60,299 bases of DNA from a virus (taxonomy: Duplodnaviria > Caudoviricetes): positions 1-60,299 of the IMG/VR virus record IMGVR_UViG_3300030372_004604; one strand, written 5' to 3'. The notes beneath the pieces are model-generated. The model was not told the DNA's origin. It did no database searches and worked only from the letters and a program-made list of their open reading frames with translations. Made by a program: the position numbers and the translations under genes. Shown one piece after another: positions 106-59,916 of this stretch (its first letter is position 1; each line of letters starts with the position of its first letter).

Positions 106-438
106 GACTGTTTGGTATTCCTCTGTTAAATGCTGGGATACAAACCCTTCCTCTTTTAAAAGGGAAGATCGCATACACTTTTCTTTTTGTGCAGGAGACC
201 GCCTGTTAAAAAACCCATATTTACCCATCCACAATTTACCTGTGCCATTTTCATCACTGATAGCGCAGTGTACATATTTAAAATTAGTTCCCTCTAAACT
301 TTTGTGTATGTCCTCTTTCAAATACACATTAGGTTCAACCATAAGCCCAAACCAGTTTTCTCTTTTACGGTGCAGAAGTTTATTTGCTAATGACAATGTT
401 CTTCCATTAAAGCACCCTATGTCTACAATTACGTTCAT
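1..438 (-). CDS. FkbM-family SAM-dependent methyltransferase, 5' part (continues at 60194-60009; about 207 aa in total)
   Basis: Manual translation from ATG 438: MNVIVDIGCFNG...MVEPN...HCAISD...ILKVDTEGND, matching FkbM motifs; ATGA overlap with the upstream gene; not in the ORF track because the window edge splits it. Confidence 0.8.
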   Translation of the reverse strand, partial: MNVIVDIGCFNGRTLSLANKLLHRKRENWFGLMVEPNVYLKEDIHKSLEGTNFKYVHCAISDENGTGKLWMGKYGFFNRRSPAQKEKCMRSSLLKEEGFVSQHLTEEYQTVPLKTLQTLLVENDITNVNILKVDTEGNDTKIFASY

Positions 439-1439
439 CCTAAACTCCTAAAAAAGGTTAAGTATTGTTCACCAATTATTTCAGGCTCATGCTGTTTTAA
501 ACTGTCAAAACCATTTTGTCTAAAATCTTGTAGCACGGTATCGCTCATAGGCATTTGCAGAACTTCAGCAAGTTGTTTTGCTGTTTCTATAACGATGCAG
601 TTATAGTTTTCTCGCATGTCATCAGGTGTGTCTAAAAGCCACTCCCTATGAATAATCGGAATACACCCTGCATTCCATGCTTCTAACCAAGTATATTGAG
701 TGCCACCCCCATCGCCTTTTATAAGCGTCATATCTACATTAAATATGTAGTCACACATTAGATTAAACGCATAGTCATTTTCTCTTGGGTAATGTGCTTT
801 AGACTGTACCCACTCTGGGTACTTAGGCACTATTTTAAATTTAGTATAGAGCCTGTTTTCAAAACCCCTTATTACGATCTTTTTGTTTTCAGGTAACAGC
901 CTATTTGCGTCTAACAAAATTTCCGTATGCTTGTCAAAATCAATACGAGAAGTGCTTATAGCTAAGTGTTTTCTAGATGCAAAAGGCAACTCTTTTTGTA
1001 CATAGGGGTGTCTTATAAACGTAGGTCTGTAAGGTAACAGTATAGAGTTGTTTGCCAAGGGTAAAGTTTCTACCCCTCTTTGTCTAATAACAACACACCT
1101 GTTCATATCCAACGGCTCTGGTAAGTTTTTTAATTCAGTAGGGTCGTGAACAACTATAAAAGCATTGCCGTCATGGTACAGGGTGTCTGTGGTTTTTTTA
1201 AAGTTTTTAGCTCCTGCTACGATTAACTTAACATTTGATCGGGCAAGAGCTTCTTCCATAGATATGTTTCTGTACCGTTTGTCATAACCAAAGTTTCTTG
1301 TTCTTTTTTCACTTCTAGGTCTAATTTTAAATAGGCTTACCTCTGCTCCTACTGCTTGCAATGTATCTATCAAATGAGAGGTGTAAGTAACCCACCCTCC
1401 ATAAGTATTAGGGCTGTTATAAAAAAGGTCTACTTTCAT
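435..1439 (-). CDS. GT-B fold (GT4-like) glycosyltransferase, candidate DNA-modifying enzyme
   Basis: N-terminal YGGW loop, STSRIDFDKH, and DGGGTQYTWLEAWNAGCIPII resembling the GT-B sugar-nucleotide binding motif; ATGA-coupled to both neighbours. Confidence 0.7.
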   Translation of the reverse strand: MKVDLFYNSPNTYGGWVTYTSHLIDTLQAVGAEVSLFKIRPRSEKRTRNFGYDKRYRNISMEEALARSNVKLIVAGAKNFKKTTDTLYHDGNAFIVVHDPTELKNLPEPLDMNRCVVIRQRGVETLPLANNSILLPYRPTFIRHPYVQKELPFASRKHLAISTSRIDFDKHTEILLDANRLLPENKKIVIRGFENRLYTKFKIVPKYPEWVQSKAHYPRENDYAFNLMCDYIFNVDMTLIKGDGGGTQYTWLEAWNAGCIPIIHREWLLDTPDDMRENYNCIVIETAKQLAEVLQMPMSDTVLQDFRQNGFDSLKQHEPEIIGEQYLTFFRSLG

Positions 1440-2377
1440 TGCACAACCCCTTGGGGCAATGGCTCACTGCTCTGTGTAAACTTACTGCGAGGTTTGCCTT
1501 GGCCTAATCGTACTCGTTCATACTTATCCCATTCACACAAGCTATGCTCTATAGTACGCATATCTATTTGGTCGGCAGGAACATGGTCACCCACAAGGTA
1601 TCCGTTACAAGGGTAATCTTTTGCAACCATTTGCAATAACTCTTGCATACCTTCGTTGGCTACCTCTTGAGTCATGCTTTTTGTTAAGGGCTTATCCCAA
1701 ATTCTATTCAACCCACGTTTTGCTCCAGGACCTGCATTGGCCCATGAGAACTTATCTACGGCATTTTTCAAAACAGGCGTGTAGTTTAAATCAGTTACAA
1801 CTTCGTAAGACATAAACCCACCACCTCCCCAACCCCTGTACTGTGATAATTTTTTATGGGTAGCTTGTAAGGATTGTGAAGACTGTGCAGAAGCAACAAT
1901 GTCTTCTGCATATTTATGTATTGGTTTAAGAAAATGGTCAACAACAACATCTGCTTTAGGTAATTTCAACCCTTGGTTTGTAATGATATACGCACCAGTG
2001 AAAGTACGCTTACCATCAGCTATCCTGTTTTTAATAAGCTGTTTAGTATATTCACCATCCCATGCAGATGTGCCAAGACTACTAACAAGCCTGACCCAAC
2101 CATGCTCTTCTGCAAATTCAATTGTGCCTACCATCCTAAACAAACAGCAATTGAAAATTATTTCATCGTGTGGCCTGTTATCGTTAGGTTTAGTCCAGTT
2201 GTTACGCATCCAAAGGGTAACCCTATCGTTTTCACGGAAGGGGTTTGTAAACTTATACTCTTGGAGTATGGGGTCTTCTGTCCATTCAGACCTTGGTACA
2301 CCCATGTTTCTCCGTTGGTATATGGCGTGTCTTTCATTTATCCAATAGAAAAACCTTTCTACGTTTTCCCTGTTCAT
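1436..2377 (-). CDS. aGPT-Pplase1-like (alpha-glutamyl/putrescinyl-thymine pyrophosphorylase clade 1) DNA base-hypermodification protein
   Basis: FFYWINERHAIY...WTEDPILQEYKFTNPFRENDR, FTGAYII, GFMSYEVVTDL, NAGPGAKRGL, IEHSLCEWDKY are characteristic of this family. Confidence 0.8.
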   Translation of the reverse strand: MNRENVERFFYWINERHAIYQRRNMGVPRSEWTEDPILQEYKFTNPFRENDRVTLWMRNNWTKPNDNRPHDEIIFNCCLFRMVGTIEFAEEHGWVRLVSSLGTSAWDGEYTKQLIKNRIADGKRTFTGAYIITNQGLKLPKADVVVDHFLKPIHKYAEDIVASAQSSQSLQATHKKLSQYRGWGGGGFMSYEVVTDLNYTPVLKNAVDKFSWANAGPGAKRGLNRIWDKPLTKSMTQEVANEGMQELLQMVAKDYPCNGYLVGDHVPADQIDMRTIEHSLCEWDKYERVRLGQGKPRSKFTQSSEPLPQGVVQ

Positions 2378-6074: not shown

Positions 6075-7597
6075 TACAAAATTTCTTGTGATGCAGGTAA
6101 AGGAGGAAGATCAATTTCTGACTCATCTGTTTCAAAGTAATCCTGTTCTAAAGACCACACATGAACACCCTTACCCCTAACTCGCCAAAACATTTTTTCT
6201 GCATTTAAATCGCGCAATCGCAACGTAACACGGTTGGAAGTGTAATGGTTGAAATCATTTACAGACAAGTGCTTTTTTAAATCTTTTACTTGGAAGTAAA
6301 CCCTATCATCTAACCAAACAGCAACCCCTTGTAGTATGTCTTCGCGTTCTTCGCCTTTAGCCCTTTCACAAGCAAACGCATGTAACAGGTCTTCAAACTC
6401 ACCCTTAAAGGTAGCATCAGGTGGTACTTCTACAATGGTGACATTATCCAACAATGTTTGTATTCTCGTTTGCCAAGAGCGTTGATTAATAGCCACAGGA
6501 AACATATTAATCTGAGATACACATTCTTTTTGAAACTGTGCTTGGCTTGTTAACCCTGTCGTTGTTAACTCTAACCGTTTGTTATCTACATTCAATATCC
6601 ATATAGGTGGGTCACCATCTATTTTAGTGAGGCTAGACATATCGTTTGCAACGCCACTAGGCCCAACACCGAACTTCCTTGTTTTACATAATTCTTTATC
6701 ACAAAAAGGTTTTATGGGTTGGTCTTCGCATTTGTAAAAGTAATCTTTCTTTTTTAACTGGCGAATAGTATTACCTACTTCGCTATGGCTAAGAGGGGGT
6801 GACAGGTAATCTATATTGTACCTTTGCACTAACTGTTCCCAGTTGTCTTCATCAAACAACCGCGCATATACACCAAGGTTGAAAAGGGCATTGTTTCTAG
6901 AACCTTCACTAAATCCCTTACTGCATAGGTGTTGTAAACAAGGAGGTCCTTCCTCTATAACACCGTCTTCTGTGCCAAAGCTGAGGTTTAGCTTACGGAA
7001 CTTAGCAGGGGTCAGTATAAATGTTTTAGCGTACTCTATAAAAGCAATAGGGTTTAACGCTTCACCATTTTGATCAAACGCATACCGTGTTGTTTTGTTT
7101 CCTGCATGATACGGCATGTTTAAGAAGTTACCTGTATCACCTCTATCTTTTAAAATAGTTGTTTGTTTAGGAAATATTTCACTACCAGAAAACCCTAGAG
7201 CCGCGCTTAGTTCTGTGATCCTACGTTGCATTTCTTCTGCTTCTATCGGTTCAGATAAAAACATCCATACATGCGCTCCACCACTTTTAGTCCTACCAAC
7301 AACCGCAGGTATTTTATTTTCGTTCAGTACATCTATTAGTTTTTTATGGCTAACATCGTATTGGTCTATATCTATGGCCCCCCACTGACACATATTGTCA
7401 CTTTTTATAGGGATAATACCTAAACCTATGCCTCCATTTAAATGTTCTTCCCACATTTCTAACCGAGTAGGTTCTTTTATAACTTTGGCTATTCCTTGTT
7501 TCTTACCATCATTAGCTCTATTACCCTTTACCTCATACGTTCCGTGGGCAATATCACTACCTTTAAATAAACTGTAAAATTCTTGGGCTAAATCCAT
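6074..7597 (-). CDS. AEP-type primase-polymerase with PriCT-like domain
   Basis: WGAIDID, RTKSGGAH, EIFPKQ, GNFLNMPY, PPCL, GSRNNALF; start trimmed to MDLAQEF after GGAG. Confidence 0.8.
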   Translation of the reverse strand: MDLAQEFYSLFKGSDIAHGTYEVKGNRANDGKKQGIAKVIKEPTRLEMWEEHLNGGIGLGIIPIKSDNMCQWGAIDIDQYDVSHKKLIDVLNENKIPAVVGRTKSGGAHVWMFLSEPIEAEEMQRRITELSAALGFSGSEIFPKQTTILKDRGDTGNFLNMPYHAGNKTTRYAFDQNGEALNPIAFIEYAKTFILTPAKFRKLNLSFGTEDGVIEEGPPCLQHLCSKGFSEGSRNNALFNLGVYARLFDEDNWEQLVQRYNIDYLSPPLSHSEVGNTIRQLKKKDYFYKCEDQPIKPFCDKELCKTRKFGVGPSGVANDMSSLTKIDGDPPIWILNVDNKRLELTTTGLTSQAQFQKECVSQINMFPVAINQRSWQTRIQTLLDNVTIVEVPPDATFKGEFEDLLHAFACERAKGEEREDILQGVAVWLDDRVYFQVKDLKKHLSVNDFNHYTSNRVTLRLRDLNAEKMFWRVRGKGVHVWSLEQDYFETDESEIDLPPLPASQEIL

Positions 7598-7718
7598 AGC
7601 TTTCTCCAATAAAAAGGTGGAGGCTACGCATTCAAATAAAGGGTTAAGAAATTTAAATGGTAGCCTCCGCAGAACAAAGGAGATCAACCCCCTGTTCTGA
7701 ACTGGGTTAAGCTATGAG

Positions 7719-37614: not shown

Positions 37615-38106
37615 CTAAAAATGCAGTATGTCATCAGGGTCAGTTATACGAGCAATGATTTCATCATCGTTAAGAAGACGAACTTCACCACCTTCTATTT
37701 TAAACCGACTTCCTGCATACCTTCCAAAAATAACCCAATCACCTTCTTTGCACCAAGGCTCTGAGTTTTCACCAAACTTATCTGTATCTAAGTAAGCTAG
37801 AGGGCCAACTTTAAGTACATATCCACAAACAGTACCTAATGCTTCCCTTTCTCTTACCTCTGTTGGTACAATAATGCCTCCATCAGTTTGCTTTTTACCT
37901 TGATAAGGAAGCAATAGTACTCGCCACCCTGTAGGTTGAGGCAATCTTTCCAATGCACTATCAGATATTTTTGAAGGGTCTAAAAAACGGTCTTCAGCGC
38001 GAACATACGCTTGTTCTAAGGCTCCAACTTTTTTCTTTTCTTTCGGGGGGGTTTTTGGTTTTTTGTCCACATAATGGTCAGGAACAAGTAGTGTCTTAGT
38101 CATCAT
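37615..38106 (-). CDS. GroES-like co-chaperonin
   Basis: PTGWRVLL...TDGGII...VLKVGP...EGDWVIF.RYAG...LLNDDEIIA. Confidence 0.85.
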   Translation of the reverse strand: MMTKTLLVPDHYVDKKPKTPPKEKKKVGALEQAYVRAEDRFLDPSKISDSALERLPQPTGWRVLLLPYQGKKQTDGGIIVPTEVREREALGTVCGYVLKVGPLAYLDTDKFGENSEPWCKEGDWVIFGRYAGSRFKIEGGEVRLLNDDEIIARITDPDDILHF

Positions 38107-38290: not shown

Positions 38291-38739
38291 TACATTAACT
38301 CAAAATGAGGGCCATCTATAAACGGCCTTTTACCTTCTCCCCTACGAATGTCTACATAATTCATCATAGCTTCTTCCATTGTACCTTCCCATGCAGCAAT
38401 ATTTGCTGTAGTCCATGCACCGCCCCAACGGACGACGACGTTAAGTTCACGAGAAGCTTCTGCCATAGCATCAGCAATTTCATCGTAAACATTTAATTCC
38501 CAAGAAGCACGTCCATCAATATAAGCCATAAGGTCTACTGCTCTGCCATCCAAATGTTTGGATTTCATCGTTTTAGTTGCACCTTTAGCAAATAAAGACT
38601 CTTGCTCTTCTATCGTTCGTTTGCCACAAATGACACCAAAATCAATCGTAGACACAGTAATCGCTTTTTTTACAACTTTGACTAAAGTACTATTTACGCC
38701 CTCTAATCGTTCATTGCTTCTTGTTGATAGCATAAACAT
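38290..38739 (-). CDS. Endolysin, M15-family L-Ala-D-Glu peptidase-like
   Basis: RT.EEQ..L, SKHLDGRAVD, WGGAW, DGPHFEL. Confidence 0.85.
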   Translation of the reverse strand: MFMLSTRSNERLEGVNSTLVKVVKKAITVSTIDFGVICGKRTIEEQESLFAKGATKTMKSKHLDGRAVDLMAYIDGRASWELNVYDEIADAMAEASRELNVVVRWGGAWTTANIAAWEGTMEEAMMNYVDIRRGEGKRPFIDGPHFELM

Positions 38740-39140
38740 TATTTAGAAATCCCCTTGTATTTCTCAAAACTTCTCAAACCACCTAACCCTAACATTCCCA
38801 TCAATACAGGCATCATTTCACTTAGGTCTAACGCAGGGATAGCAACGAGATAATTAAATTGTGCTAATGTAAACATCAGTATGGGGTGGATTACATAGTT
38901 GTATGCCATTGCAACACCACATGTCCAACCAATAAATGGACGCCATCCTGCTATAAAAACATTCCTGCTTTGTGCTTCGGCCTTGTTTATTTCTAACTGA
39001 CCTTTGGCAAGCTCTTGGGCATGGCGTTCTGCCATTGTAGATATTTCATGGGCAAGTTGGTTCTTTTGGTCTTTATCTTCTATAAATTTATCAAGCAGTC
39101 CCGTAACAGGTTGGACTAAAGAGCCTAATAAATTTATCAT
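38739..39140 (-). CDS. Holin (3TM / GTA-type)
   Basis: WRPFIGW.CG, LMGMLGLGGLRSFEK. Confidence 0.75.
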   Translation of the reverse strand: MINLLGSLVQPVTGLLDKFIEDKDQKNQLAHEISTMAERHAQELAKGQLEINKAEAQSRNVFIAGWRPFIGWTCGVAMAYNYVIHPILMFTLAQFNYLVAIPALDLSEMMPVLMGMLGLGGLRSFEKYKGISK

Positions 39141-40705: not shown

Positions 40706-43081
40706 TCAACCTCTAGTATTTGCATTTTTCTGTTGTGCTATCCTCGCTCGCATTTGAGCAATATCTTCTGTACTGTTAATCCTATCTTGGCCTAACTGGA
40801 ACTGTTGCTGTTGCCTTTGTTGGTCAAGGGCTAATTTTCTTTGATCTATTTGTTGGTCTGCCATCATTTCCTGTTCACGCAACTGCAACTCTTGCTGTTT
40901 TATCTGCACCAATGGGTCTTGTTCTTGTGCAGGTGGTTGTGATTGTTGGAACTGAGCAAATAACTGTGCTTGCATCTGGGCAACCATAGCTTCCTGTTGC
41001 TCTGGCGGTACTTGTTGTCCCTGCATCTGTTGTTGAACAGCAACTTTAGCCTTTAACCCTAAATGCTCGTATATATGTTTTTCTAACAATATCGCAACAG
41101 GCGGTTGTATCTGCGCTACCTTACTATTCATATATGCTAGATGCACCGCAATATGGGCATCGTGGTCCTGTTCTGGAAACGCCTGTAATGTACCCTGTCC
41201 ATTCGCAACATTACTTGTTTCCATGTTTTCCATAGCAGGATCCATGGGACGTTGTTCAGGTTCAGGTTTTAGTATTTGATCTATATTATTCACACCCAAT
41301 GCTTCGTATACACGGTGGTATGCCTCATACAAATTGTGCATATCGGGGGCCGCTACCGCCAATTTTAACTGCTCTTGAGCTAAAACAACCCTTTGTGACA
41401 TACTAAAGATGTTTGGGTCGCTTACTGGTAGTATATCTATCCTACCATCAAAATCTTGGCTCTTTATCTGCCCATCTACTCCTACATCATAAGGGTAAGG
41501 CCGTGGATCTTGGGCAAATAACGCTCCCAACATTTTTAATTCATGTTTTAATGACGCATGTAACCGTTTATGCACCGCAGAAACTATACGGCTCCCTCGC
41601 TCAAGTAACGCAATAGTTGTACCAACTGGCATTTCTTGGTTACCCTGACCAACGCCCATATCCGTCGTACCAATAAAGCGTTGCGCGGCCTCAACAACAA
41701 AACCCATAAGCTGAAACAGGGTAGCACTCGGCTCTTTATACGGTAATGGCATCAAAGATGCCTTTAAATCACCTCCAGGAACATCAACATCTCTAAATTC
41801 TCCAGGATTTAACGGATTTTGCTCATCTGCAATCCGCAAACCACGAGCTTTAAATCCTGCTGGCATATTTGCCAACGTGCCTGAGTCAATTAACTGGCGT
41901 AAATTAGCCGTTGCCGTACGAGACAAGTTGCCAAGCAAATGTATCAACCCAAAACCATAAAAACCAAGTCCTGGAGTAAATTTATACTGCACGAAATGTT
42001 GAATTTTATCTTTATTTGGGTCATCTTGTAGGTAATTACGTCTAATTGACAATACTTCGCCTGTATCTTTACATACAGTTACGATATATGGCAGTTTTAA
42101 ACCAGTACTTTCGTCATTTTCTCCCTTATCTGCATACTCTTCTAAGTCTAAGAAACAATGACATTCAAACAAAGTAAACTGTTCATCATTATAGGTAGGG
42201 CTTATACCCTCTATATCATCATAAGCGGATTGAACCTCATCAGAAGAAGGCGAAGCACTGCTCTCGCTATCCATTTCCATGTAAAAACCAGAAAGTTGTA
42301 GCTTCTTCAACTCATTTTGTGAGATTTTTATAACATGTGTTATCCGTTCTGCCGACTGTAAATCCGTAGCAATGTATGGAACAATCACTTCTTCAGCGGG
42401 AACAAACTTACTTACTGGCCTATCTAGCATTTCATCGCGATAAACCTTTTTAAACGCACTTCCTGCCAAACCTAAGTAATAAAGCATCTGGTCAAACTCA
42501 GGCTCGTACTCTTCCATTTCATACATTATCTGGTAATTCATGTATTCCTGCACACGTTGAGCCTGTTGCTCTGTTTCGGGTGTTGGCATACCAATAATAT
42601 TCGCGCGGACAGGACCTCCACTTGGCAACATCTCCTTATAAGCAGATGCCTGAAACTGTGTAATAGCCTCGTTCAGTAATGGGTGGATAACACCAGTTGC
42701 ACCTTCAAACGGCTCCGTACGAGTTTCGTACCGCATACCTAGTAAATCCAAACCCTTTACATAAGTATCTTCCCAATCACTACGGCTATTTTTATCCTCC
42801 TCTACAGAAGACGTAACATAACTCGCAACCTCAGCAAGCGTAGACTCTTGTAAATTTTCCGCTAAATTATCGTAAAAGTTTTCTGGCTCCTCACCAAAAA
42901 CAACCTCTTCCATACCTGTAGTTATTTCTACACCACCATCATCATCTTCTACAATTTCAACCTCGCCATCAAAAAACATATCCTGTTGAGCTTGTAGATC
43001 TTCCTCTTCAAAACTCATATCCTCTACAGGAGCCTGTATCAACGCCCGATCTACATTATTTACCTTAGGAGACAATGCCAT
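40706..43081 (-). CDS. Portal protein
   Basis: 791 aa directly after TerL; SR.DWE..Y..GL.LLG, GSAFKKVY, GFYGFGL, GTTIALLE. Confidence 0.85.
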   Translation of the reverse strand: MALSPKVNNVDRALIQAPVEDMSFEEEDLQAQQDMFFDGEVEIVEDDDGGVEITTGMEEVVFGEEPENFYDNLAENLQESTLAEVASYVTSSVEEDKNSRSDWEDTYVKGLDLLGMRYETRTEPFEGATGVIHPLLNEAITQFQASAYKEMLPSGGPVRANIIGMPTPETEQQAQRVQEYMNYQIMYEMEEYEPEFDQMLYYLGLAGSAFKKVYRDEMLDRPVSKFVPAEEVIVPYIATDLQSAERITHVIKISQNELKKLQLSGFYMEMDSESSASPSSDEVQSAYDDIEGISPTYNDEQFTLFECHCFLDLEEYADKGENDESTGLKLPYIVTVCKDTGEVLSIRRNYLQDDPNKDKIQHFVQYKFTPGLGFYGFGLIHLLGNLSRTATANLRQLIDSGTLANMPAGFKARGLRIADEQNPLNPGEFRDVDVPGGDLKASLMPLPYKEPSATLFQLMGFVVEAAQRFIGTTDMGVGQGNQEMPVGTTIALLERGSRIVSAVHKRLHASLKHELKMLGALFAQDPRPYPYDVGVDGQIKSQDFDGRIDILPVSDPNIFSMSQRVVLAQEQLKLAVAAPDMHNLYEAYHRVYEALGVNNIDQILKPEPEQRPMDPAMENMETSNVANGQGTLQAFPEQDHDAHIAVHLAYMNSKVAQIQPPVAILLEKHIYEHLGLKAKVAVQQQMQGQQVPPEQQEAMVAQMQAQLFAQFQQSQPPAQEQDPLVQIKQQELQLREQEMMADQQIDQRKLALDQQRQQQQFQLGQDRINSTEDIAQMRARIAQQKNANTRG

Positions 43082-44547
43082 TAATAGTAACTCCTTATCC
43101 TAGGGGCAGACTCTTCATCCTCATAATCTTCCGGATGCTGAATAAAACCACCCTCTCTAAATCTTCGCAACGCCTGTGTCACCGTATCAACATAATCATC
43201 ATGCTCTCCGGCAGGAAACGCCGCACACTCCTCAATAACTTCTTCCGACCAACGTGTATCTGGAGCCCATACTAATCCTGATTCTAGTAAAGGTGCAATA
43301 GAATTCACTCTGGTATGTTTATCATTTCCTCTCGACGGGCTATAATTCTGTACCGGAATGCCCATGTTCCGTAACTCCTGAGTCAACGGCATACCCGAAG
43401 CTTTCGCCTCAATCAACACACACTCAGGGTCCCAATACTTATACTCCTCTAACGCCTTACGACGCAAGTCCGGAAAATCCCACCTGCCTCTCTGCGCATC
43501 AACCAAAAGTATATTCGCAGGAGCACCATCATAAGGATAAAAAACTCCCCACGTTGTTATAGCACTAAAATCCGCAGACTCCTTCTTACTATACGCTGTA
43601 TCATAAGACTGCATCACATAATCCAAATTAGGCAAATCTTCTTTTTTCCACTCCTGCCACCACTCACGTTTAAGTATCGCAGCTCCCTCACTCGTCGGGT
43701 TCTGCTGCCACTGCGCTTCCCACTTACCTACAGACAAACTTCCCTTAACAGCTAATAAATCTTCCTGCTTCCAATACTCAGGCCACAACGGTTTATTCGT
43801 CTCCGGCATCAAAGCAGGGAACTCCACCACCTCCCACTTATCAGCCAACACATCCCGCGCTTGCTGGCGCAACAACTTACCCGTCAAATCGTTTTCTGCC
43901 CAACGAGTCATTATAATTACTATACTCCCTCCGGGCTGTAACCTTTGACGAGGCCCAGAAGTATACCACTCATACGCATGCTCCAACGCTGTAGGGGACA
44001 AAGCATCTTGTTCGGAATGCGGGTCATCAATAATCAACAAATCCGCACCACGGCCCGTCACCGCTCCACCAACGCCAGCCGCAAAATATTCACCACCCTT
44101 AGACGTTTCCCATCTTCCAGCAGCTTGGCTATCCGCTCGCAACTCCACATCAAATATTCCACGGTACTCCTGAGAATTCATCAAGTTCCTAGTCTTACGT
44201 CCAAACCTAAACGCCAACTCCGCAGTATGCGTAGTCTGCATTATCTTCAACGTAGGCCGCTTACCCATCAACCACGAAGGCAACAAGTAACTTCCAAACT
44301 CACTCTTCGTATGTCGGGGGGGCATATTCACAATTAAACGCTTTAAATCACCACTAGCCAAACGATTAAACTTCTCAGCCATTATTCCATGGTGGCGACC
44401 ATTCACAAACTCAGGCCAAACCATTCTACAATACGTCATAAAATCATTCTGCGCAGCTTCAGCCTTACCCAAATAACTCGCACGATCCAATAACGTAGCA
44501 AACTTCTTCAAATGTTCCTCAGGAACATACTCTAAACCACTATCCAT
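43081..44547 (-). CDS. terL: Terminase large subunit
   Basis: MPPRHTKS Walker A, IIDDPH Walker B, MTRW, YDTA, IEAKASG, HDDYVD. Confidence 0.92.
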   Translation of the reverse strand: MDSGLEYVPEEHLKKFATLLDRASYLGKAEAAQNDFMTYCRMVWPEFVNGRHHGIMAEKFNRLASGDLKRLIVNMPPRHTKSEFGSYLLPSWLMGKRPTLKIMQTTHTAELAFRFGRKTRNLMNSQEYRGIFDVELRADSQAAGRWETSKGGEYFAAGVGGAVTGRGADLLIIDDPHSEQDALSPTALEHAYEWYTSGPRQRLQPGGSIVIIMTRWAENDLTGKLLRQQARDVLADKWEVVEFPALMPETNKPLWPEYWKQEDLLAVKGSLSVGKWEAQWQQNPTSEGAAILKREWWQEWKKEDLPNLDYVMQSYDTAYSKKESADFSAITTWGVFYPYDGAPANILLVDAQRGRWDFPDLRRKALEEYKYWDPECVLIEAKASGMPLTQELRNMGIPVQNYSPSRGNDKHTRVNSIAPLLESGLVWAPDTRWSEEVIEECAAFPAGEHDDYVDTVTQALRRFREGGFIQHPEDYEDEESAPRIRSYY

Positions 44548-44786
44548 AATTTCTTATATATCGATAATTTTTCAAACACAATGAACCTATAATCAATAAC
44601 AACCATAAAGGGGGGTAGGTCAACTGTTTAAGGATCCTCATAGTTGACTTTTTGTGAAATGTTTTTGGAACATATTGAAATGTTCAGAACAGGGTAAAGG
44701 GTGCTACTAATACCACCCTTTGTGCTCAGGGGGGGCCGGCAAAAACCGTGCCAGTTTTGCCGCACCAAAAATACGGGGTACCTTAT

Positions 44787-44815
44787 AAAAAAGGGGCCGG
44801 TAAAAAACCGGCCCC
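44787..44815 (-). terminator. Intrinsic terminator of the island gene
   Basis: GGGGCCGG-TTTTTTA-CCGGCCCC followed by TTTTTT. Confidence 0.8.
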
Positions 44816-44825
44816 AGTTAAAAAC

Positions 44826-45386
44826 CTACTTGGTTTTTGCGGTTGGCCCAACAACTTTAAGGGTAACAAAACTATTACCCCAAGTTGGGCTTTTAGGTGT
44901 AAACCCACCATTAAGCAAAGCCAATAAAACTACTGGGTTTTTATAACTTTGCCCGCCCGTTGGTATACCAAACTTGTTGGTATTGGCCCAAGCACTTGGC
45001 TTGTTGCCACAACTAACACTAGCATTAAGCCAGTTGTGCAAGTTAGTGGGCGCGTTAAGCGCGTGGTATAACATGGTAGCGCGTGGCCCATATACGCTTT
45101 TTAAACCCGTTGGGGTTTGGGCTGGCGTTGCGCCTACCATGTAACCGCCCATTTTTTTACAGGCTGGCCCACCACGCAAACCAAAGTTAATACTGTTATA
45201 CCCAATACCTTTATTTGGTATTATTTGCACATTGCTAGGTTTAGCCATTGCATTAGCCGTTAGCCAATTTTGGTAACTAATAAAGCATGGGCCGTTTTGG
45301 TAAATTAACGCCTTGCCCAAAGTTGCGCCAATGTTTAGTGCCGGTGCAGTGGTAAGCAACTGCGGTGCTGTTTTACTTAATGCCAT
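44826..45386 (-). CDS. 186-aa basic protein with no Asp or Glu; paralogue of 51936-52388
   Basis: TAAAGGGT RBS before ATG 45386; shares K.P.VLLALLNGG(F/Y).P.S..WG..(F/Y)V.L.V with its paralogue. Confidence 0.8.
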   Translation of the reverse strand: MALSKTAPQLLTTAPALNIGATLGKALIYQNGPCFISYQNWLTANAMAKPSNVQIIPNKGIGYNSINFGLRGGPACKKMGGYMVGATPAQTPTGLKSVYGPRATMLYHALNAPTNLHNWLNASVSCGNKPSAWANTNKFGIPTGGQSYKNPVVLLALLNGGFTPKSPTWGNSFVTLKVVGPTAKTK

Positions 45387-45453
45387 TTTGTATAACCCTT
45401 TAAAATGGTGGGGCCTTGGCCCCGTTGCGCTAGCCAATTGCTAACGTAACAAC

Positions 45454-45482
45454 ACGTTAGCACGTTGCTATATTAGTGTAAA
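45454..45482 (-). promoter_or_regulatory. Sigma70-type promoter of the island gene
   Basis: TTTACA-17 nt-TAACGT with TG extended -10; overlapped by the inverted repeat TGCTAACGT/ACGTTAGCA (45439-45462). Confidence 0.6.
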
Positions 45483-45820
45483 CCCCTATAGGCTATTTTT
45501 ATTTATGGGCATGTATGGCAGCATTTTAGTTGCCTAGGCAACTATTTTGGCCGTGACGCGACGCGACTTATGCACCCACAGAGGAGAACGCATGATCAAT
45601 CATTATCATATGTCCTCTCTCTTCGTAATCTCAATCTTGTACGTCTGTCCTCTCTCTTCGTAATCCTAATATGGGTCGCTGTACCACGCCAGTAGACACA
45701 CAACTACAAGACAAATAACAAATACCATTGGTCTATACCTTTGCTAGTTAACAATGGTTATTGTATACCCTAAACAAATAATCAAGGGTTGTCTTATGTT
45801 GTACTATTTGCTCTCATCAA

Positions 45821-45910
45821 TAACGATCAATAACGATCAATAACGATCAATAACGATCGCTAATGATCAATGCCGATCATCCATGATCAGTGCTGATCTA
45901 GATCAAGATC
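45821..45910. repeat. 10-bp-periodic GATC array
   Basis: GATC at 45825, 45835, 45845, 45855, 45865, 45875, 45885, 45895, then 45901 and 45907; first units are exact TAACGATCAA. Confidence 0.9.
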
Positions 45911-45983
45911 AATCATCATCTGTCATCGTCTCTCGGTCGTAATCTATAGTCCTCTCTCTATCGTAATCAATCATCGTCAATCA

Positions 45984-46451
45984 TCATCTCTCGGTCGTAA
46001 TCTCTCCGTCGTAATCATCCTTGTCATGACGATCCGAGGATGATAGAATATGATCAATCACTCCATGCCAGTCAAACGGTGACTCGCAACTCCAGTCCGG
46101 TATCAATGGTTCATGGACCTTGGCCTCTCCCATCTTAATCGCACGACCACCCCCAAATATATTCAGGGTAGAAGACGAAGGATGATGAACCAAGTTGTAG
46201 ACTTTGCCTTTATTCATGAAATATCTGGTTTGCCACGCAATTTGGTGAGGGCGTAGCGCGATATTTTTTAATGACTTTAACCTGTGGACTTTCAATTCTA
46301 GCCAAAAAGCCTGACCATTCAGTATGCCATGCAAGTCAGGGATTCCTGGAGTTGCCCAAGACTCTAAGCGTGTCCAAAACACGCCTAGGTCCTGAGTTCC
46401 TTCTCTTAGTTTATACCAAAGTTTACTTTCAGGTTTACTTGTCAAGCCCAC
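45984..46451 (-). CDS. PD-(D/E)XK nuclease, VRR-NUC/resolvase-like
   Basis: PE..LW, RLES...GIPDL, WLELKV, RPHQIAW. Confidence 0.75.
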   Translation of the reverse strand: MGLTSKPESKLWYKLREGTQDLGVFWTRLESWATPGIPDLHGILNGQAFWLELKVHRLKSLKNIALRPHQIAWQTRYFMNKGKVYNLVHHPSSSTLNIFGGGRAIKMGEAKVHEPLIPDWSCESPFDWHGVIDHILSSSDRHDKDDYDGEITTER

Positions 46452-46933
46452 CTCAACCCAAGCTCGGGCATGTATTGGTTAAAGCTGTCGCGGTCATACT
46501 CACTTATGCCACAAACCCTGTGGTATGTTTCGTCAATAGTAATAACGTACAGGTAATCAATGTCACCATGTATGCCATTGGTTATCTCATACTTGCCTGT
46601 CAACTGCATAGGCTCGTAATGTGTTTGCTTGTGCCTCGGGTTCAGTATTTTACGCACCCCGTCCCATGCTTCATGCTTAACTAACAGGTCAGCATAGAAC
46701 TCTAATAAACGGCTTGGCTCGGCAAACAACTTTTTTATACCCTCATTAGTGTGTGGGGCTAACTGTTCATCGCCCTGTTTTACAAACTCTTTGTAGTTGT
46801 CTGCATACCAACGTATAGCCTCAGCATATTTTTTTAACTCAGGTCTCACACTACTGGGGTAACCATCGTAATGTCTGTAAATGTACTTAACTTGGTCACC
46901 GCACTCTAAAACTATATTACATCTTGTACCCAT
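46442..46933 (-). CDS. Conserved hypothetical phage protein
   Basis: MGTR.NI...IYRHYDGYP; GAGAAAGGGT RBS. Confidence 0.7.
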   Translation of the reverse strand: MGTRCNIVLECGDQVKYIYRHYDGYPSSVRPELKKYAEAIRWYADNYKEFVKQGDEQLAPHTNEGIKKLFAEPSRLLEFYADLLVKHEAWDGVRKILNPRHKQTHYEPMQLTGKYEITNGIHGDIDYLYVITIDETYHRVCGISEYDRDSFNQYMPELGLRWA

Positions 46934-47013
46934 TTGTCTAACCCTTTCTCGGTTATTTATTAACTATAATTAGTATAGCAACAGCGTTTACACTGAGTAA
47001 CCCTTTTTATGTC

Positions 47014-47556
47014 TTATTTTGTCTTGTCATCCGCTTGGTTTTCTATAAGCACATTGCCGTCAGCAACAGCGGCAAGTGCAGGGAACTCCTTTTGGAGTTT
47101 CTGTATTTCTTTCATCACTTGCTCCCTGTCCATTTGGTCTATTTTTCCATGTAGTATTTCTTTACGATCAATGTAGAGACCTGCAGCTTGCCCTCGTGAT
47201 TTTTCGGCGGCGACAGCTGCGGCGAAGTTACCGCCTGTCATAGCTTCGTCTCTGATTTCAGCTAACTTTTTTACATGACTTTCAAAGCTGACCTCATACT
47301 TTTTGGCTAACTCGCCTTTTAGTTCACCTATTCTCGCAACTACATGTGGGTAGCGTTGACCATTTAATAATTGCGATGCAATGGCGTGTGCGGATTTTAC
47401 TGAGTACCCTGCCCTAACTGCGGCCTCTGTTTGGCTTATGTCCTCACATACATACAATCTTGCAAACTCTTCTTGCTTGGGTGTTATGTTCTTTTCTGTT
47501 CGTGGGTTGGCTACAATTTCAAGCGTTGGCTTGTGAGTAGCTTTTGCTAAAACCAT
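47014..47556 (-). CDS. terS: Terminase small subunit
   Basis: TPKQEEFA..Y...SQTEAA.RAGYS..SA...ASQLL HTH signature. Confidence 0.8.
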   Translation of the reverse strand: MVLAKATHKPTLEIVANPRTEKNITPKQEEFARLYVCEDISQTEAAVRAGYSVKSAHAIASQLLNGQRYPHVVARIGELKGELAKKYEVSFESHVKKLAEIRDEAMTGGNFAAAVAAEKSRGQAAGLYIDRKEILHGKIDQMDREQVMKEIQKLQKEFPALAAVADGNVLIENQADDKTK

Positions 47557-51935: not shown

Positions 51936-52388
51936 CTATTTGCTCACAGTTAATTTAACGTATGGCGTCCCCCAGTACTTACTGCTAGGAGAGTAACCGC
52001 CATTTAACAGGGCGAGCAGGACATTGGGCTTTTTGCGTGAATGTCCTAGCTTGGCACATTGGTTAAGGATAAACCCTAACCGTTTATCACCATTTATGCC
52101 TGTTAGAAAAGCTGATTGAATGAAGTGCCGTACACCTCCTTTCTTACCACCCCATCCAAAAGGTACGTCCTCAGGGCTTTGTACAAGGCATTGTATTTCA
52201 ACATTGTTTTCGTTGCCCCCTGCTTCAACTCTCACAAAACTTATAATATCATCATAAGTAAGTTCTTCGCCGTTAAGCATTAACTCAGCAATAACTGGCT
52301 TTTTCTTGGCAACTGCTTTTACTATTTTTTTAGAGGATGCCTTGGCAGTGCTAGGAGCCTCATTTTTTAACGCTACTACTTTTGTCAT
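51936..52388 (-). CDS. Hypothetical protein, ordinary-composition paralogue of the island gene
   Basis: KKPNVLLALLNGGYSPSSKYWGTPYVKLTV. Confidence 0.75.
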   Translation of the reverse strand: MTKVVALKNEAPSTAKASSKKIVKAVAKKKPVIAELMLNGEELTYDDIISFVRVEAGGNENNVEIQCLVQSPEDVPFGWGGKKGGVRHFIQSAFLTGINGDKRLGFILNQCAKLGHSRKKPNVLLALLNGGYSPSSKYWGTPYVKLTVSK

Positions 52389-52448
52389 AATATCCACCTT
52401 TCTATGTGGGTTACAATTAAGTTATGGCTACACTATAAAAGTCAACTT

Positions 52449-58617: not shown

Positions 58618-58969
58618 ACTTATCTTCAAACCTTTGTATGTCGTCTTCGCCTAAATAAGAACCATGTTGCACTTCAATTACAACTAAAGGTTGAAGCCCA
58701 ATATTAACCAAACTATGTATCCACCTTTTTGGTATGGTTATACATTCTTGCACTGAAAGTTGTGTTGTTTTCAATTTAAAAAGTTTAGGACCTCTAACCA
58801 CGTTAGCTGTTCCATGAACAACCACCCAGTTTTCTGCCCTATGTTCGTGTGCCTGTAAAGACAACTGCTCTCCTGCATTCACCAAAATGTTTTTTACTTT
58901 GTAATGAAGCCCTTCCTCTAACACTTGGTAATGGCCCCAAGGTTTTTCTACCACCTTCTCATCAACCAT
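58604..58969 (-). CDS. Cupin, mannose-6-phosphate isomerase type II C-terminal-like
   Basis: KPWGHY.VL, LSLQ.H.HRAENWVVV.G, IEVQ.GSYLGEDDIQRFED.YGR. Confidence 0.85.
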   Translation of the reverse strand: MVDEKVVEKPWGHYQVLEEGLHYKVKNILVNAGEQLSLQAHEHRAENWVVVHGTANVVRGPKLFKLKTTQLSVQECITIPKRWIHSLVNIGLQPLVVIEVQHGSYLGEDDIQRFEDKYGRA

Positions 58970-59916
58970 TCTACACACGCCTTTCTCCATGCTAAGTCTT
59001 CAATGTTTTCTGCATGGCGTACTGCCTCATCTATATTTTTTGCCTTCCAAGCACCCCAAGATAAATCCATGGGCGTAAGCACTTGATCAAAGTAAGAGTT
59101 AGTATATGTATTGGTTTCATTGTTCATCCAGCGTTGTAACTCTTTATCAAAACAAGCAGGTTCATCAACCAATGGTTTAGGGTTGTAATTCCTATTATCA
59201 CCTAAATGCAGGTAAGGATCGTAATCAGGCTCAATGTTTTTTACTTTTTCTAAAGTATCTACATAAGCGTGTAAATTATTACTAAACTGATAATATGTAC
59301 CTACCGCGCAATCTATCCTTGCCGCCATGTATTCTAACAGTACAGACATATGAACAGCGTTTGCTCCATATGCCCCCCATATCATATCATTGCTCCTATT
59401 ACATACGGTCATGTTTAACGTGTTGTTACGAACCCAAAACATGATTTGCGTATTGCATGGGTGGTCTTTACCAGTGTTTTCTATAGAAAAATCTTTTATA
59501 GGATCCCACATAGAAACAACAGTGCGGCGATCGTTTTCATAATGAAGCAAGCGATGAACGGCTATTTCTAGTTGGTCTTTGCCAAACCAGTTTTTCCATC
59601 GGTAACCATATGCTCCATTAATAGTTACACCGTCATCGCTATAGCTACTCATCCTACCATTGTAGTTAGAAATCCACTCAACTTCATTTTTACCTGCTAA
59701 CATCCAAAACGATTCCATTAAATGGAAGTAAGGGTTAGCGTCACGCATAGGGTAAAACAATACTCTTTCCCTGCTATGGCTGTAAGAAGTCATAACGGGG
59801 CAAGGAAACTCTAATGCTTTACCATTGCGTGTGTCTACCTCAACACCTTTAGTTTCTAATGCCTGTACTGCTAGGTACAATGCTTCACTTACATTTCTTG
59901 CATTTATATGTTGCAT
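58948..59916 (-). CDS. Thymidylate-synthase homologue, likely dUMP hydroxymethylase
   Basis: RDANPYFHL.E..W.L.G, GAYG.RW, DHPCN (catalytic Cys), NRSND..WGAYGAN with Asn at the dUMP-specificity position. Confidence 0.8.
   Translation of the reverse strand: MQHINARNVSEALYLAVQALETKGVEVDTRNGKALEFPCPVMTSYSHSRERVLFYPMRDANPYFHLMESFWMLAGKNEVEWISNYNGRMSSYSDDGVTINGAYGYRWKNWFGKDQLEIAVHRLLHYENDRRTVVSMWDPIKDFSIENTGKDHPCNTQIMFWVRNNTLNMTVCNRSNDMIWGAYGANAVHMSVLLEYMAARIDCAVGTYYQFSNNLHAYVDTLEKVKNIEPDYDPYLHLGDNRNYNPKPLVDEPACFDKELQRWMNNETNTYTNSYFDQVLTPMDLSWGAWKAKNIDEAVRHAENIEDLAWRKACVEWLMRRW

Follow-up and report, generated by a model that had tools for sequence, protein, structure and literature searches.

A hypervariable GA/TC-free gene cassette in a marine phage lineage with a predicted thymidine hypermodification set

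INTRODUCTION

Context-specific hypermodification of thymidine by 5-hmdU DNA kinase pathways has been described for the phages M6, ViI, phiW-14, and SP10, and the passages cited here report no modification-free island or target-free gene in these phages (PMC5889632, PMC8989533, PMC6449724). The conversion is called "sequence-specific" in the excerpts concerned, with its motifs given as unknown (PMC8989533, PMC5889632). According to an inference published for M6, ViI, and phiW-14, the modified T is set by its 3' neighbor; the restriction-resistant sites of these phages share TG/TC, which the authors credit to the kinase in the section cited (PMC6449724). Podophages of the HTVC023P type, including TS plus aGPT-Pplase1 clades, are widespread pelagiphages in which the hypermodification gene pair adjoins PolA, as stated in the passages used here (PMC9599517).

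The window, i.e., the whole stretch of DNA analyzed in this work, is a complete 60.3-kb phage genome (60299 bases). It shares the backbone of the HTVC023P-type phages, encodes a TerL 58-62% identical to those of HTVC027P, HTVC023P, and 023Pt_psg01, and on these sequence grounds its lineage is assigned to that group. It also carries the same enzyme families as the M6-, ViI-, phiW-14-, and SP10-type systems, i.e., PF18723, a thymidylate synthase (TS) homologue, PolA, and an HD nucleotidase. Whereas TG and TC are both implicated in the former, TC alone is excluded here, and the exclusion is confined to one transcription unit. A literature search of article texts found no prior description of such an island, and the passages used of PMC9599517 do not mention the cassette ("hypervariable" has 0 occurrences).

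Two better-known phenomena offer partial parallels. The leading end of phage T7 is poor in restriction sites and carries the anti-restriction gene 0.3. There as here, words have been purged by DNA-level selection, but in our case the word is a dinucleotide, the purge is total, a single transcription unit is affected, and two amino acids are lost; the gene 0.3 product is an acidic DNA mimic, whereas the island product is basic. Vertebrate CpG islands are unmodified promoter islands in a modified genome, and the locus would resemble them in that a promoter stretch escapes genome-wide, dinucleotide-directed base modification. However, CpG islands are target-rich and shielded from the enzyme, whereas here the target is deleted, through the whole coding region.

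RESULTS

Extent of the exclusion

A recount over the window found no GA or TC on either strand at 44728-45554, which agrees to within one base with the sequence-only reading (44728-45555). The edges are sharp, as also claimed: this longest GA/TC gap of the genome runs from a TC at 44726-44727 to a GA at 45555-45556, in a sequence that holds 5736 GA plus TC and whose second-longest gap is 66 bp. Per 828 bp, the dinucleotide frequencies of the genome predict 79.9 and the base composition of the island predicts 102.6, where about 90-100 had first been estimated. Once all dinucleotides were counted, the GA/TC gap stood alone, since the longest gaps of the remaining nine strand-symmetric classes are merely 53-322 bp; TG/CA occurs in the island at a normal level (60 and 51). 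The same island between the same flanks recurs in many independent contigs, which rules out an assembly chimera, and the stretch is present in runs from 10 studies. Metatranscriptome contigs (four runs, 43500-47000) cover chiefly the conserved flanks; one is ~92% alike on 44855-45182, and most of the island is uncovered.

Protein composition does not account for this exclusion. Resampling the synonymous codons of the island gene according to genome codon usage (10,000 draws) gave 35.9 +/- 4.6 GA/TC with a minimum of 19, against 0 observed, and ~25 would be expected in the 267 noncoding bases of the island. As the earlier reading had held, the exclusion operates on DNA and not on protein: it affects both strands, all codon positions, and the noncoding flanks. 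In many alleles, the free zone starts at least ~30-45 bp before the -35 element and ends ~95-160 bp beyond the stop codon. Total and strand-symmetric exclusion in coding and noncoding sequence, reaching past promoter and stop, argues for a DNA-level rather than an RNA-level cause. A single transcript unit with sharp limits would suit an mRNA that lacks GA and UC and thereby escapes a ribonuclease, but this is extremely unlikely. As GA and TC are each other's reverse complement, their joint absence is the mark of a cause acting on the duplex, and every allele examined is likewise free of them upstream of the -35 and past the terminator. Moreover, we know of no nuclease with dual GA and UC specificity.

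Cassette anatomy and neighborhood

The island edges are the ends of a variable cassette in alignable relatives, and the cassette sits between terS (PF03592) and terL (PF17289). Its parts and its upstream flank are as follows.

44728..45554, no strand: GA/TC-free island, the entire variable cassette between conserved backbone sequences (recount and alignment with relatives)
44785..44815, minus strand: intrinsic terminator with 9-bp GC stem, 5-nt loop, and T-run (hairpin scan and sequence)
44826..45386, minus strand: gene of 186 codons for a basic protein without Asp/Glu (open reading frame; no Pfam/PHROG match)
45394..45401, minus strand: ribosome-binding site AAAGGGTT, a GA-free version of the early genes' GAGAAAGGGTT (sequence)
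45439..45462, no strand: 9-bp inverted repeat with 6-nt spacer that overlaps the -10, possibly operator-like (sequence)
45454..45482, minus strand: putative sigma-70-like promoter with -35 TTTACA, 17-nt spacer, and -10 TAACGT, preceded by an A/T-rich stretch (read from sequence)
45527..45544, no strand: perfect 18-bp palindrome at the upstream edge of the island (sequence)
45556..46000, no strand: flank with the top GA/TC density of the genome, GATC every 10 bp exactly, and GA-rich direct repeats (density count)

The promoter, ribosome-binding site, 186-codon gene, and terminator read from the letters alone thus hold, as do the GA-free signal variants, with TTTACA as the -35 and AAAGGGTT in place of CCGAGAAAGGGTTTACAnATG, which four early genes carry. 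Early genes outside the island, conserved leaders included, contain GA/TC. The promoter itself is a candidate read from the sequence; other alleles have the same -35 and spacing with TATATT or TATTCT as the -10, and a consensus promoter scan did not recover it in the island. The upstream flank holds 94 GA/TC per 500 bp versus a mean of 47.6 (sd 10), and it has GATC sites at 45825, 45835 ... 45895 and a 10-bp tandem repeat of 6.4 copies.

Conservation, variability, and origins

The allele census covered 80 loci from viromes and metagenomes and yielded 60 distinct complete family genes. Half of these (30) have 0 GA/TC, 2 have 1-2, 1 has 4, and 27 have at least 25, with none between; the violations in the three near-free genes amount to 4 TC and 3 GA, too few for a strand-asymmetry test. 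The 24 distinct complete islands add up to 19,110 bp, and four further loci have GA/TC gaps of 539-846 bp. The exclusion is conserved under strong ongoing purifying selection. One-third of all possible single substitutions would generate GA/TC, and none of the 160 differences between the window and allele L029 does so; nor does any of the 57-234 differences in each of eight other pairs among the ten compared.

Monophyly of the full set of GA/TC-free alleles is rejected by an AU test (p = 0.017, for a group named after the tree was seen). Of the two free clades, one is placed with ordinary early paralogues and one with ordinary locus alleles, so that the trait probably arose at least twice. Synonymous resampling gave z-scores of -2.5 to -3.0 for ordinary alleles, but no meaning can be read into these values, as the control gene orf163 gives -4.1.

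The cassette protein is 34-99% identical inside near-identical backbones (TerL 94-100%), and such hypervariability suggests an arms race. The cassette might then be an anti-defense gene, with its own host-type promoter and terminator, kept intact and readable by escape from a host enzyme that damages TC/GA DNA. Candidates for such an enzyme are a TC-specific cytosine deaminase and a DarT-type thymidine ADP-ribosyltransferase, the latter already proposed in the sequence-only reading. This deaminase- or DarT-type explanation is a weaker rival that we regard as quite unlikely. The other 59.5 kb, with ordinary TC/GA density, would be equally exposed, DarT motifs are four bases long and would not demand the loss of each TC, no anti-defense family was matched in Pfam or PHROGs, and the lineage-wide link to the 5-hydroxymethyluracil (hmU) operon described below would be coincidental. 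The other proposal made at that time, GATC/GANTC restriction, falls away, as it cannot explain the loss of each GA.

Island protein and early paralogue

The 186-aa island protein is basic and lacks Asp and Glu because neither GA nor TC occurs on either strand; the two acidic residues are absent in all 12 homologues. It has no family match in Pfam or PHROGs, tblastn against 50,697 phage records gave no match, and megablast with the island region gave none. An AF2 model predicts an alpha/beta fold (pLDDT 84, pTM 0.83; an earlier model from 13 sequences was poor, with pLDDT 61), for which Foldseek returned no match at E <= 0.001 in PDB and BFVD. The best Z in the wide VIA fold comparison was 3.6, and many winged-helix domains scored Z 2.3-2.6 over residues 60-182, weak values that lie below the meaningful threshold. 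Basic tails rich in Lys/Ala/Pro are visible in the alignments, with a C-terminal AKKAPAKK-type tail in several alleles; that of the window allele is short.

Within its own genome, tblastn with the island protein matched the early paralogue alone:

51936..52397, minus strand: early-region paralogue P0013 of ordinary composition, with 36 GA/TC and a Lys-rich N-terminal tail (tblastn and alignment)

A diversity-generating retroelement target was rejected on the same tblastn result and because a Pfam scan of 55 ORFs turned up no reverse-transcriptase family. An ESM Atlas search with the paralogue returned unnamed viral clusters only. A library of 1.84 billion representatives yielded 76 family members, of which 36 have 0-3 Asp/Glu; no DNA of the more distant acid-free members P0035, P0049, and P0058 was found in IMG/VR. 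The hypervariability, the early-gene paralogy, the lineage-wide conservation, and the probable repeated evolution of the trait had all escaped the sequence-only reading.

The replacement pattern bears on whether the island could be a mutational footprint, left in a strongly transcribed unit by recurrent deamination (TC to TT, GA to AA). Pooled islands do show an excess of AA (1.45 observed/expected) and TT (1.51), and the extent of the island matches the transcription unit. However, CC, GG, and GC are equally in excess (1.41-1.65), island G+C is above that of the genome (45.5% versus 40%), and the free zone covers DNA upstream of the promoter. Where ordinary relatives have an acidic residue, the alignment shows a wide range of substitutes that goes beyond Asn/Lys, and the protein core is conserved. 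We deem such a footprint very unlikely.

These protein features also invite a form of self-exemption, in which the basic product would coat or silence GA/TC-bearing DNA, modified or not, with its own unit site-free so that expression continues. SPO1, a phage with hmU-derived DNA, offers a precedent in TF1, an abundant, small, HU-like DNA-binding protein with a preference for hmU-DNA and an influence on transcription. No sequence or fold relation between TF1 and the island protein was found, and the TF1 gene is not known to us to lack any dinucleotide. Self-exemption would suit a constraint that tracks the protein family, in that two separately rooted clades are GA/TC-free and low-acid members are frequent in the library; the basic tails, the winged-helix-type matches, and the phased GATC array with the genome's densest GA/TC directly upstream of the cassette also speak for it. 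We nevertheless consider it rather unlikely. No fold match reaches a meaningful threshold and DNA binding is putative, two bases are too few for a protein to recognize directly unless they are read via a modification, and locus and family are confounded, since both free clades lie at the same locus. If the protein reads modified TC, self-exemption overlaps with the explanation by hypermodification that we favor below.

Hypermodification operon and co-occurrence with the island

The genes that could set such a modification are as follows.

435..1439, minus strand: 334-aa protein (orf334) adjoining the kinase, no family match, conserved in relatives (profile searches and comparison)
1436..2377, minus strand: 5-hmdU DNA kinase/aGPT-Pplase1-type protein, presumed source of the sequence context (PF18723, E 2e-51, 175 bits versus a cut-off of 25)
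58948..59916, minus strand: thymidylate-synthase homologue, presumed dUMP hydroxymethylase (PF00303, 1.7e-22)

The kinase is 33-36% identical to homologues of YuA/PaMx11-type phages and PhiJL001; for metaviromes, PMC8989533 reports 352 contigs bearing this kind of kinase in IMG/VR2 and 713 in GOV2. The TS homologue is 42% identical to a PhiJL001 gene annotated as similar to the SPO1 deoxyuridylate hydroxymethylase, an assignment for which hydroxymethylase and methylase are not separable by sequence alone. A putative glucosyltransferase is mentioned for the region of orf334 in such phages, in the passages cited (PMC9599517). The phage also has its own PolA (PF00476, 2e-60) and an HD/YfbR-like nucleotidase domain (1.7e-10). 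Together, these matches support a predicted 5-hmdU-based thymidine hypermodification set.

Island and operon co-occur, a check that the sequence-only reading had suggested. Four island-bearing genomes, namely the window, G001, G005, and G016, reach a completeness of 90% or more, and PF18723 scores above cut-off in each. The three related complete genomes without the operon have neither island nor family gene, although the co-occurrence amounts to one phylogenetic contrast; two of these three, scanned whole, have longest GA/TC gaps of 80 and 74 bp. The island is thus linked to the operon-bearing lineage. It is not obligatory there, as one contig with the same operon (orf334 92% identical, kinase C terminus at the cut end) has 25 GA/TC and 7 Asp/Glu at the locus behind the same promoter; L018 and L019 are two further GA/TC-containing alleles of that kind. 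The proposed modification link therefore stands in part: the enzyme set is encoded and co-occurs with the island, but the same operon is also found with a GA/TC-containing allele. In other lineages with this kinase, no dinucleotide-free island was found in PhiJL001 (whole) or in the first 50 of the 58.7 kb of YuA.

The relevant base might instead be the G or A of GA, through adenine methylation or through a deazaguanine insertion of the kind that phage CAjan makes in GA and GGC contexts. That a phage modification with GA dinucleotide context exists lends this some support, within the passages cited (PMC7544227). A CcrM-like N6/N4 methyltransferase is encoded in the window, but it matches CcrM-type models far below their cut-offs; TGT/DpdA (PF01702) has 0 matches in the genome (the control matched 14 of 14 genomes), and neither preQ0 genes nor, bar this methyltransferase, other base-modifying enzymes were found among the 55 ORFs scanned with Pfam. 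CcrM-type enzymes recognize 4-5-bp sites, whose avoidance needs just a handful of changes, and a Markov expectation reveals no genome-wide avoidance of GATC or GANTC. We judge a role of G or A highly improbable.

Palindromes and site avoidance

The genome backbone shows classical palindrome avoidance, and TC/GA is missing from each of the 12 six-base palindromes under strong avoidance in the genome, which gives weak support to a TC context. The avoided palindromes number 76 in the 19.1 kb of pooled islands versus 10 in 59.5 kb of backbone, and the island of the window contains GGTACC and GCTAGC, found nowhere else in the genome. Restriction-site avoidance was rejected as the cause of the island on these grounds, as the dinucleotide is missing only locally and palindromes avoided by the backbone are present in islands. 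Unmodified DNA open to restriction would not be expected to keep sites that are avoided elsewhere. We also discarded the palindrome class test as independent proof of the TC context: it is confounded by GC/AT content, and its Mann-Whitney p = 0.0035 in the window is accompanied by a stronger effect of AT-containing words and by nearly null results in G001 and G005.

DISCUSSION

With moderate confidence, we favor the explanation that the unit has been purged of 5'-TC, the target of the phage's own thymidine hypermodification, and hence stays canonical DNA. The island is a self-contained hypervariable cassette comprising an UP-like region, a putative sigma-70-type promoter, a leader hairpin, a ribosome-binding site, the 186-codon gene, and a terminator. 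The phage polymerase would insert 5-hmdU, the 5-hmdU DNA kinase would activate it within the polymer, and substitution would follow, with 5'-TC-3' as the context of this postreplicative modification; TC contexts make up ~16% of all T in the genome. Selection has removed each 5'-TC-3' from both cassette strands, at the cost of a protein without Asp, Glu, TCN-Ser, or any NGA/NTC codon, and the target-free unit would remain chemically canonical within an otherwise modified chromosome. The T plus G/C specificity inferred for M6, ViI, and phiW-14, as given in the passages cited (PMC6449724), makes a TC-context modification plausible here.

Such a unit would be exempt from the effects of bulky major-groove adducts on DNA-reading proteins. 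Candidates include effects on initiation and elongation by unmodified host RNA polymerase, on binding by modification-reading proteins, possibly the cassette's own DNA-binding-like product among them, and on attack by modification-dependent host nucleases. Both TC as the modification context and the benefit that drives selection are our inference. Two findings count against parts of it: the published inference covers TG too, yet TG/CA is normal in the island, and the purpose proposed in the sequence-only reading, transcription of incoming virion DNA by host RNA polymerase, sits poorly with early genes and conserved leaders that contain GA/TC and must still be expressed.

More tentatively, this abundant marine phage lineage may use hypermodification both as a positional signal and as armor, with target deletion making a permanent canonical island, a hard-wired epigenetic exception that evolved at least twice. 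Expression of the island, or its immunity to modification readers and nucleases, would then differ from that of the rest of the chromosome, under a pressure so strong that the protein does without two amino acids. Should the modification link fail, a conserved, convergently evolved, GA/TC-intolerant unit of 0.7-0.9 kb would still call for an explanation.

If the favored explanation is true, this would be the first virus known to edit its own sequence to exempt a defined gene unit from its own hypermodification. Hypermodification contexts would become readable from genomes, with the TC specificity of the kinase revealed by sequence alone, whereas such motifs are called unknown in the cited passages of PMC5889632. 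The island would provide a handle on how transcription and protein read-out work on hypermodified templates, and an example of a DNA-level constraint that reshapes a protein into a functional fold without acidic residues. Dinucleotide-free windows could serve as a simple metavirome screen for modification contexts, and the phenomenon would concern very common ocean viruses.

RESULTS

GA and TC are excluded from the island at the DNA level

The window, a complete phage genome of 60,299 bp, contains 5736 GA and TC dinucleotides on recount. The sequence-only reading had described an 828-bp island with none of them and with sharp edges, and the computed gap is 829 bp, from a TC at 44726 to a GA at 45555, versus 66 bp for the second longest in the window. 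About 80 (genome frequencies) or 103 (island base composition) occurrences are expected (the sequence-only estimate was about 90-100), and no gap exceeds 322 bp in any of the remaining strand-symmetric dinucleotide classes. The promoter, ribosome binding site (RBS), 186-codon gene, and terminator claimed for the island were all read there.

Features of the island unit and its neighbors (palindrome to RBS in order on the minus strand; promoter, A/T-rich stretch, inverted repeat, hairpin, and RBS read from sequence)
47014-47556: terS, one neighbor of the unit
45544-45527, read on the minus strand: 18-bp palindrome, first element of the unit
between palindrome and -35, minus strand: A/T-rich stretch
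45482-45454, minus strand: promoter TTTACA, 17 nt, TAACGT
overlapping the promoter at 45482-45454: 9-bp inverted repeat
leader, between promoter and RBS, minus strand: GC hairpin
45401-45394, minus strand: RBS, AAAGGGTT
44826-45386, minus strand: 186-codon ORF, the sole ORF in the island
44815-44785, minus strand: strong intrinsic terminator, with ~57 further free bases beyond it
43081-44547: terL, the other neighbor

Four early genes of the window share the leader CCGAGAAAGGGTTTACAnATG; the island RBS is therefore a GA-less version, as had been proposed. In these small genes (48367, 49513, 50940, and 51457, minus strand), a conserved upstream element of ~50 nt ending in CCGAGAAAGGGTTTACAnATG marks a repeated early-gene cassette leader.

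The island protein has neither Asp nor Glu and is 9.7% Asn and 7.5% Lys. Missing acidic residues are insufficient to account for the DNA composition, because the same protein written with genome codon usage would carry 35.9 +/- 4.6 GA/TC (minimum of 19 in 10,000 draws) and another ~25 are expected in the 267 noncoding bases. Codons TCN, TTC, ATC, CTC, GTC, CGA, AGA, and GGA, several of them common genome-wide, have zero use in the island gene. The exclusion thus spans coding and noncoding DNA, as first claimed; an RNA-level cause is one rival explanation. Across 24 distinct islands recovered complete (19,110 bp pooled), GA/TC is the sole absent di- or trinucleotide. The original observation is confirmed and much extended.

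Directly upstream, 45556-46000 holds the genome's peak GA/TC density (94 per 500 bp; mean, 47.6; SD, 10). Eight GATC sites are spaced by exactly 10 bp (45825 ... 45895), with two more at 45901 and 45907; this array (45816-45907) lies within a 10-bp tandem repeat and adjoins ~19-nt GA-rich direct repeats. It resembles the P1 pac site, where an array of hexamers is under methylation control, and given its placement between terS and terL, it may serve as a signal for packaging or replication.

The island is a hypervariable cassette

Twelve metagenomic homologues of the island protein, down to 46% identity, all lack Asp and Glu. DNA was fetched for 24 viral and 45 metagenomic loci, and for further loci via searches with distant family members. 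TerL at these loci is mostly 94-100% identical to that of the window, with a second group at 77-81%, and the cassette protein ranges from 34 to 99%; a hypervariable cassette thus sits in a conserved backbone. The cassette ends where the GA/TC-free zone ends, and this zone comprises the gene, ~120-300 bp upstream, and ~95-160 bp downstream (32 bp in locus L076). A metatranscriptome contig (run X15) matches the backbone up to window position 45568 and continues as an L054-type allele, so that an independent sample also contains the cassette junction.

Window TerL is 58-62% identical to those of Pelagibacter phages HTVC027P and HTVC023P, of 023Pt_psg01, and of DSL-LC04. No such island occurs in 13-kb windows around TerL in three relatives or in two scanned as whole genomes (longest GA/TC gaps, 80 and 74 bp), and unrelated genes occupy the island position.

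Among 60 distinct complete family genes from 80 loci, GA/TC counts are bimodal: 0 in 30, 1-2 in two, 4 in one, and at least 25 in 27. The last group consists of 24 early-region paralogues (P0013 type; 51936-52397, minus strand, in the window) and three ordinary, i.e., GA/TC-containing, alleles at the TerL-proximal locus. These alleles (L054/L087, 9896-10426; L018; L019) hold 25-31 GA/TC and 7-10 acidic residues; they share the locus and promoter of the free alleles, with backbone TerL 94-99% identical; they are acid-poor and somewhat GA/TC-poor, on a null model too poorly calibrated to call them intermediates. In the lineage with TerL at ~77-81% (L022-L027, L076, L079, L083, L101-L104), both forms are adjacent: directly upstream of the free gene is an ordinary P0013-like paralogue.

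When 1.84 billion representatives were searched with a profile, 77 proteins passed E <= 0.001, so the family is small. Of 76 new members (P0014-P0089), 16 lack acidic residues and 20 have one to three; with 36/76 at 0-3, the trait is probably wider than the DNA examined here. DNA from relatives (77-98% identical) was available for only P0021, P0031, and P0040 among acid-poor proteins, relatives of P0014 and P0017 being already included among the fetched loci. Long Ala/Pro-rich C-terminal tails occur in P0035, P0047, P0077, and P0089.

Of the single substitutions possible in an island, one third would create GA/TC. The differences in ten aligned island pairs, e.g., 160 between the window and L029 or 234 between the window and L004, created none. 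Between island groups, DNA identity drops to about 65% or the sequences no longer align. A mutational footprint is a rival to selection here. In the family tree, 23 free alleles form one group that has the three ordinary locus alleles as its sister, and the free clade L022, L025, and L027 groups with ordinary early paralogues, also by BLASTP. Forcing all free alleles into a single clade cost 26 log-likelihood units (AU p = 0.017, for a group defined after the tree was seen and involving a long branch). Composition bias would draw free alleles together, not apart; with the AU result, this makes two origins, or one loss, of the GA/TC-free state likely, not proven.

An AlphaFold model of the island protein with a 35-sequence alignment is confident (pLDDT 84, pTM 0.83) and has no convincing match among solved or viral structures. 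Weak matches recurrently involve winged-helix DNA-binding domains (Z 2.3-2.6). Lys/Ala/Pro-rich tails, C-terminal in many alleles and at the start of early paralogues, resemble basic DNA-binding tails of the linker-histone type. DNA binding is thus a reasonable guess.

DISCUSSION

The genome carries candidate thymidine hypermodification genes.

Candidate modification genes and companions encoded in the window
1436-2377, minus strand: 5-hmdU DNA kinase (HMUDK)/aGPT-Pplase1-type protein (PF18723, 2e-51)
435-1439, minus strand: 334-aa protein without assigned family (orf334), adjoining the kinase gene
thymidylate-synthase homologue
cupin
HD nucleotidase
PolA
T4 endoV-like protein
CcrM-like methyltransferase

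The window also encodes an AEP primase ("TOTE" type, with PriCT; 6074-7687), a DUF932 protein (3124-4149), a Cpn10/GroES homologue (37615-38106), and a GTA-type 3-TM holin (38739-39140). Island and modification operon co-occur in the genomes compared: each of the four near-complete genomes with an island (the window, G001, G005, and G016) encodes PF18723, as do two fragments, and it was not found in three complete relatives without an island. HTVC023P-type clades V, VIII, and IX combine thymidylate synthase, aGPT-Pplase1, a deoxynucleotidase, and a putative glucosyltransferase (PMC9599517).

Conversion of 5-hmdU takes place "in sequence-specific contexts" whose motifs are given as not known in two reports (PMC8989533, PMC5889632). 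In another, restriction-resistant sites led the authors to infer that M6, ViI, and phiW-14 carry their modified T in TG or TC, a context attributed to the kinase (PMC6449724). The window island differs in that TC is excluded and TG/CA is not depleted. Strand-symmetric loss of TC would be expected if T followed by C is the phage's target. Counting both strands, 5736 of the 36,072 T positions (15.9%) are in TC context. Modification of G or A is a rival, including deazaguanine at GA as in CAjan, an alternative weakened because no TGT/DpdA family was found in the genome.

Several observations temper a link to modification. One 16-kb contig shares the backbone (PolA, 98%; TerL, 99%; orf334, 92%; end of the kinase gene at the cut edge), and its allele, behind the same promoter, has 25 GA/TC and 7 acidic residues. 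As this allele sits alongside the modification operon, the island state is advantageous at most, not indispensable. Leaders of other early genes contain GA/TC, and no island was found in HMUDK phages of other lineages (PhiJL001; YuA, first 50 kb). Rival explanations also include a TC-directed host enzyme and self-exemption without modification. Six-base palindromes that are avoided almost entirely by the backbone have 76 matches in 19.1 kb of islands versus 10 in 59.5 kb of backbone, and the window's only GGTACC and GCTAGC lie within the island (44777 and 45429). Twelve such palindromes are absent or nearly so genome-wide (e.g., ATGCAT, 0 versus 14.6 expected; GGTACC, 1 versus 13.8), none containing TC or GA; in related genomes that lack HMUDK, such words number 2 and 0. 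The island does not follow this genome-wide avoidance.

No prior description of such an island was found in the literature, supplements aside. The best explanation, which we consider about evenly balanced against the rest, is that TC is the context in which the phage hypermodifies its own thymidines and that selection has purged it from the cassette, which would thereby remain canonical DNA. Such a state might allow unmodified host polymerase to transcribe the cassette, exempt it from a protein that reads the modification (perhaps the one it encodes), or let it survive nucleases that depend on modification.
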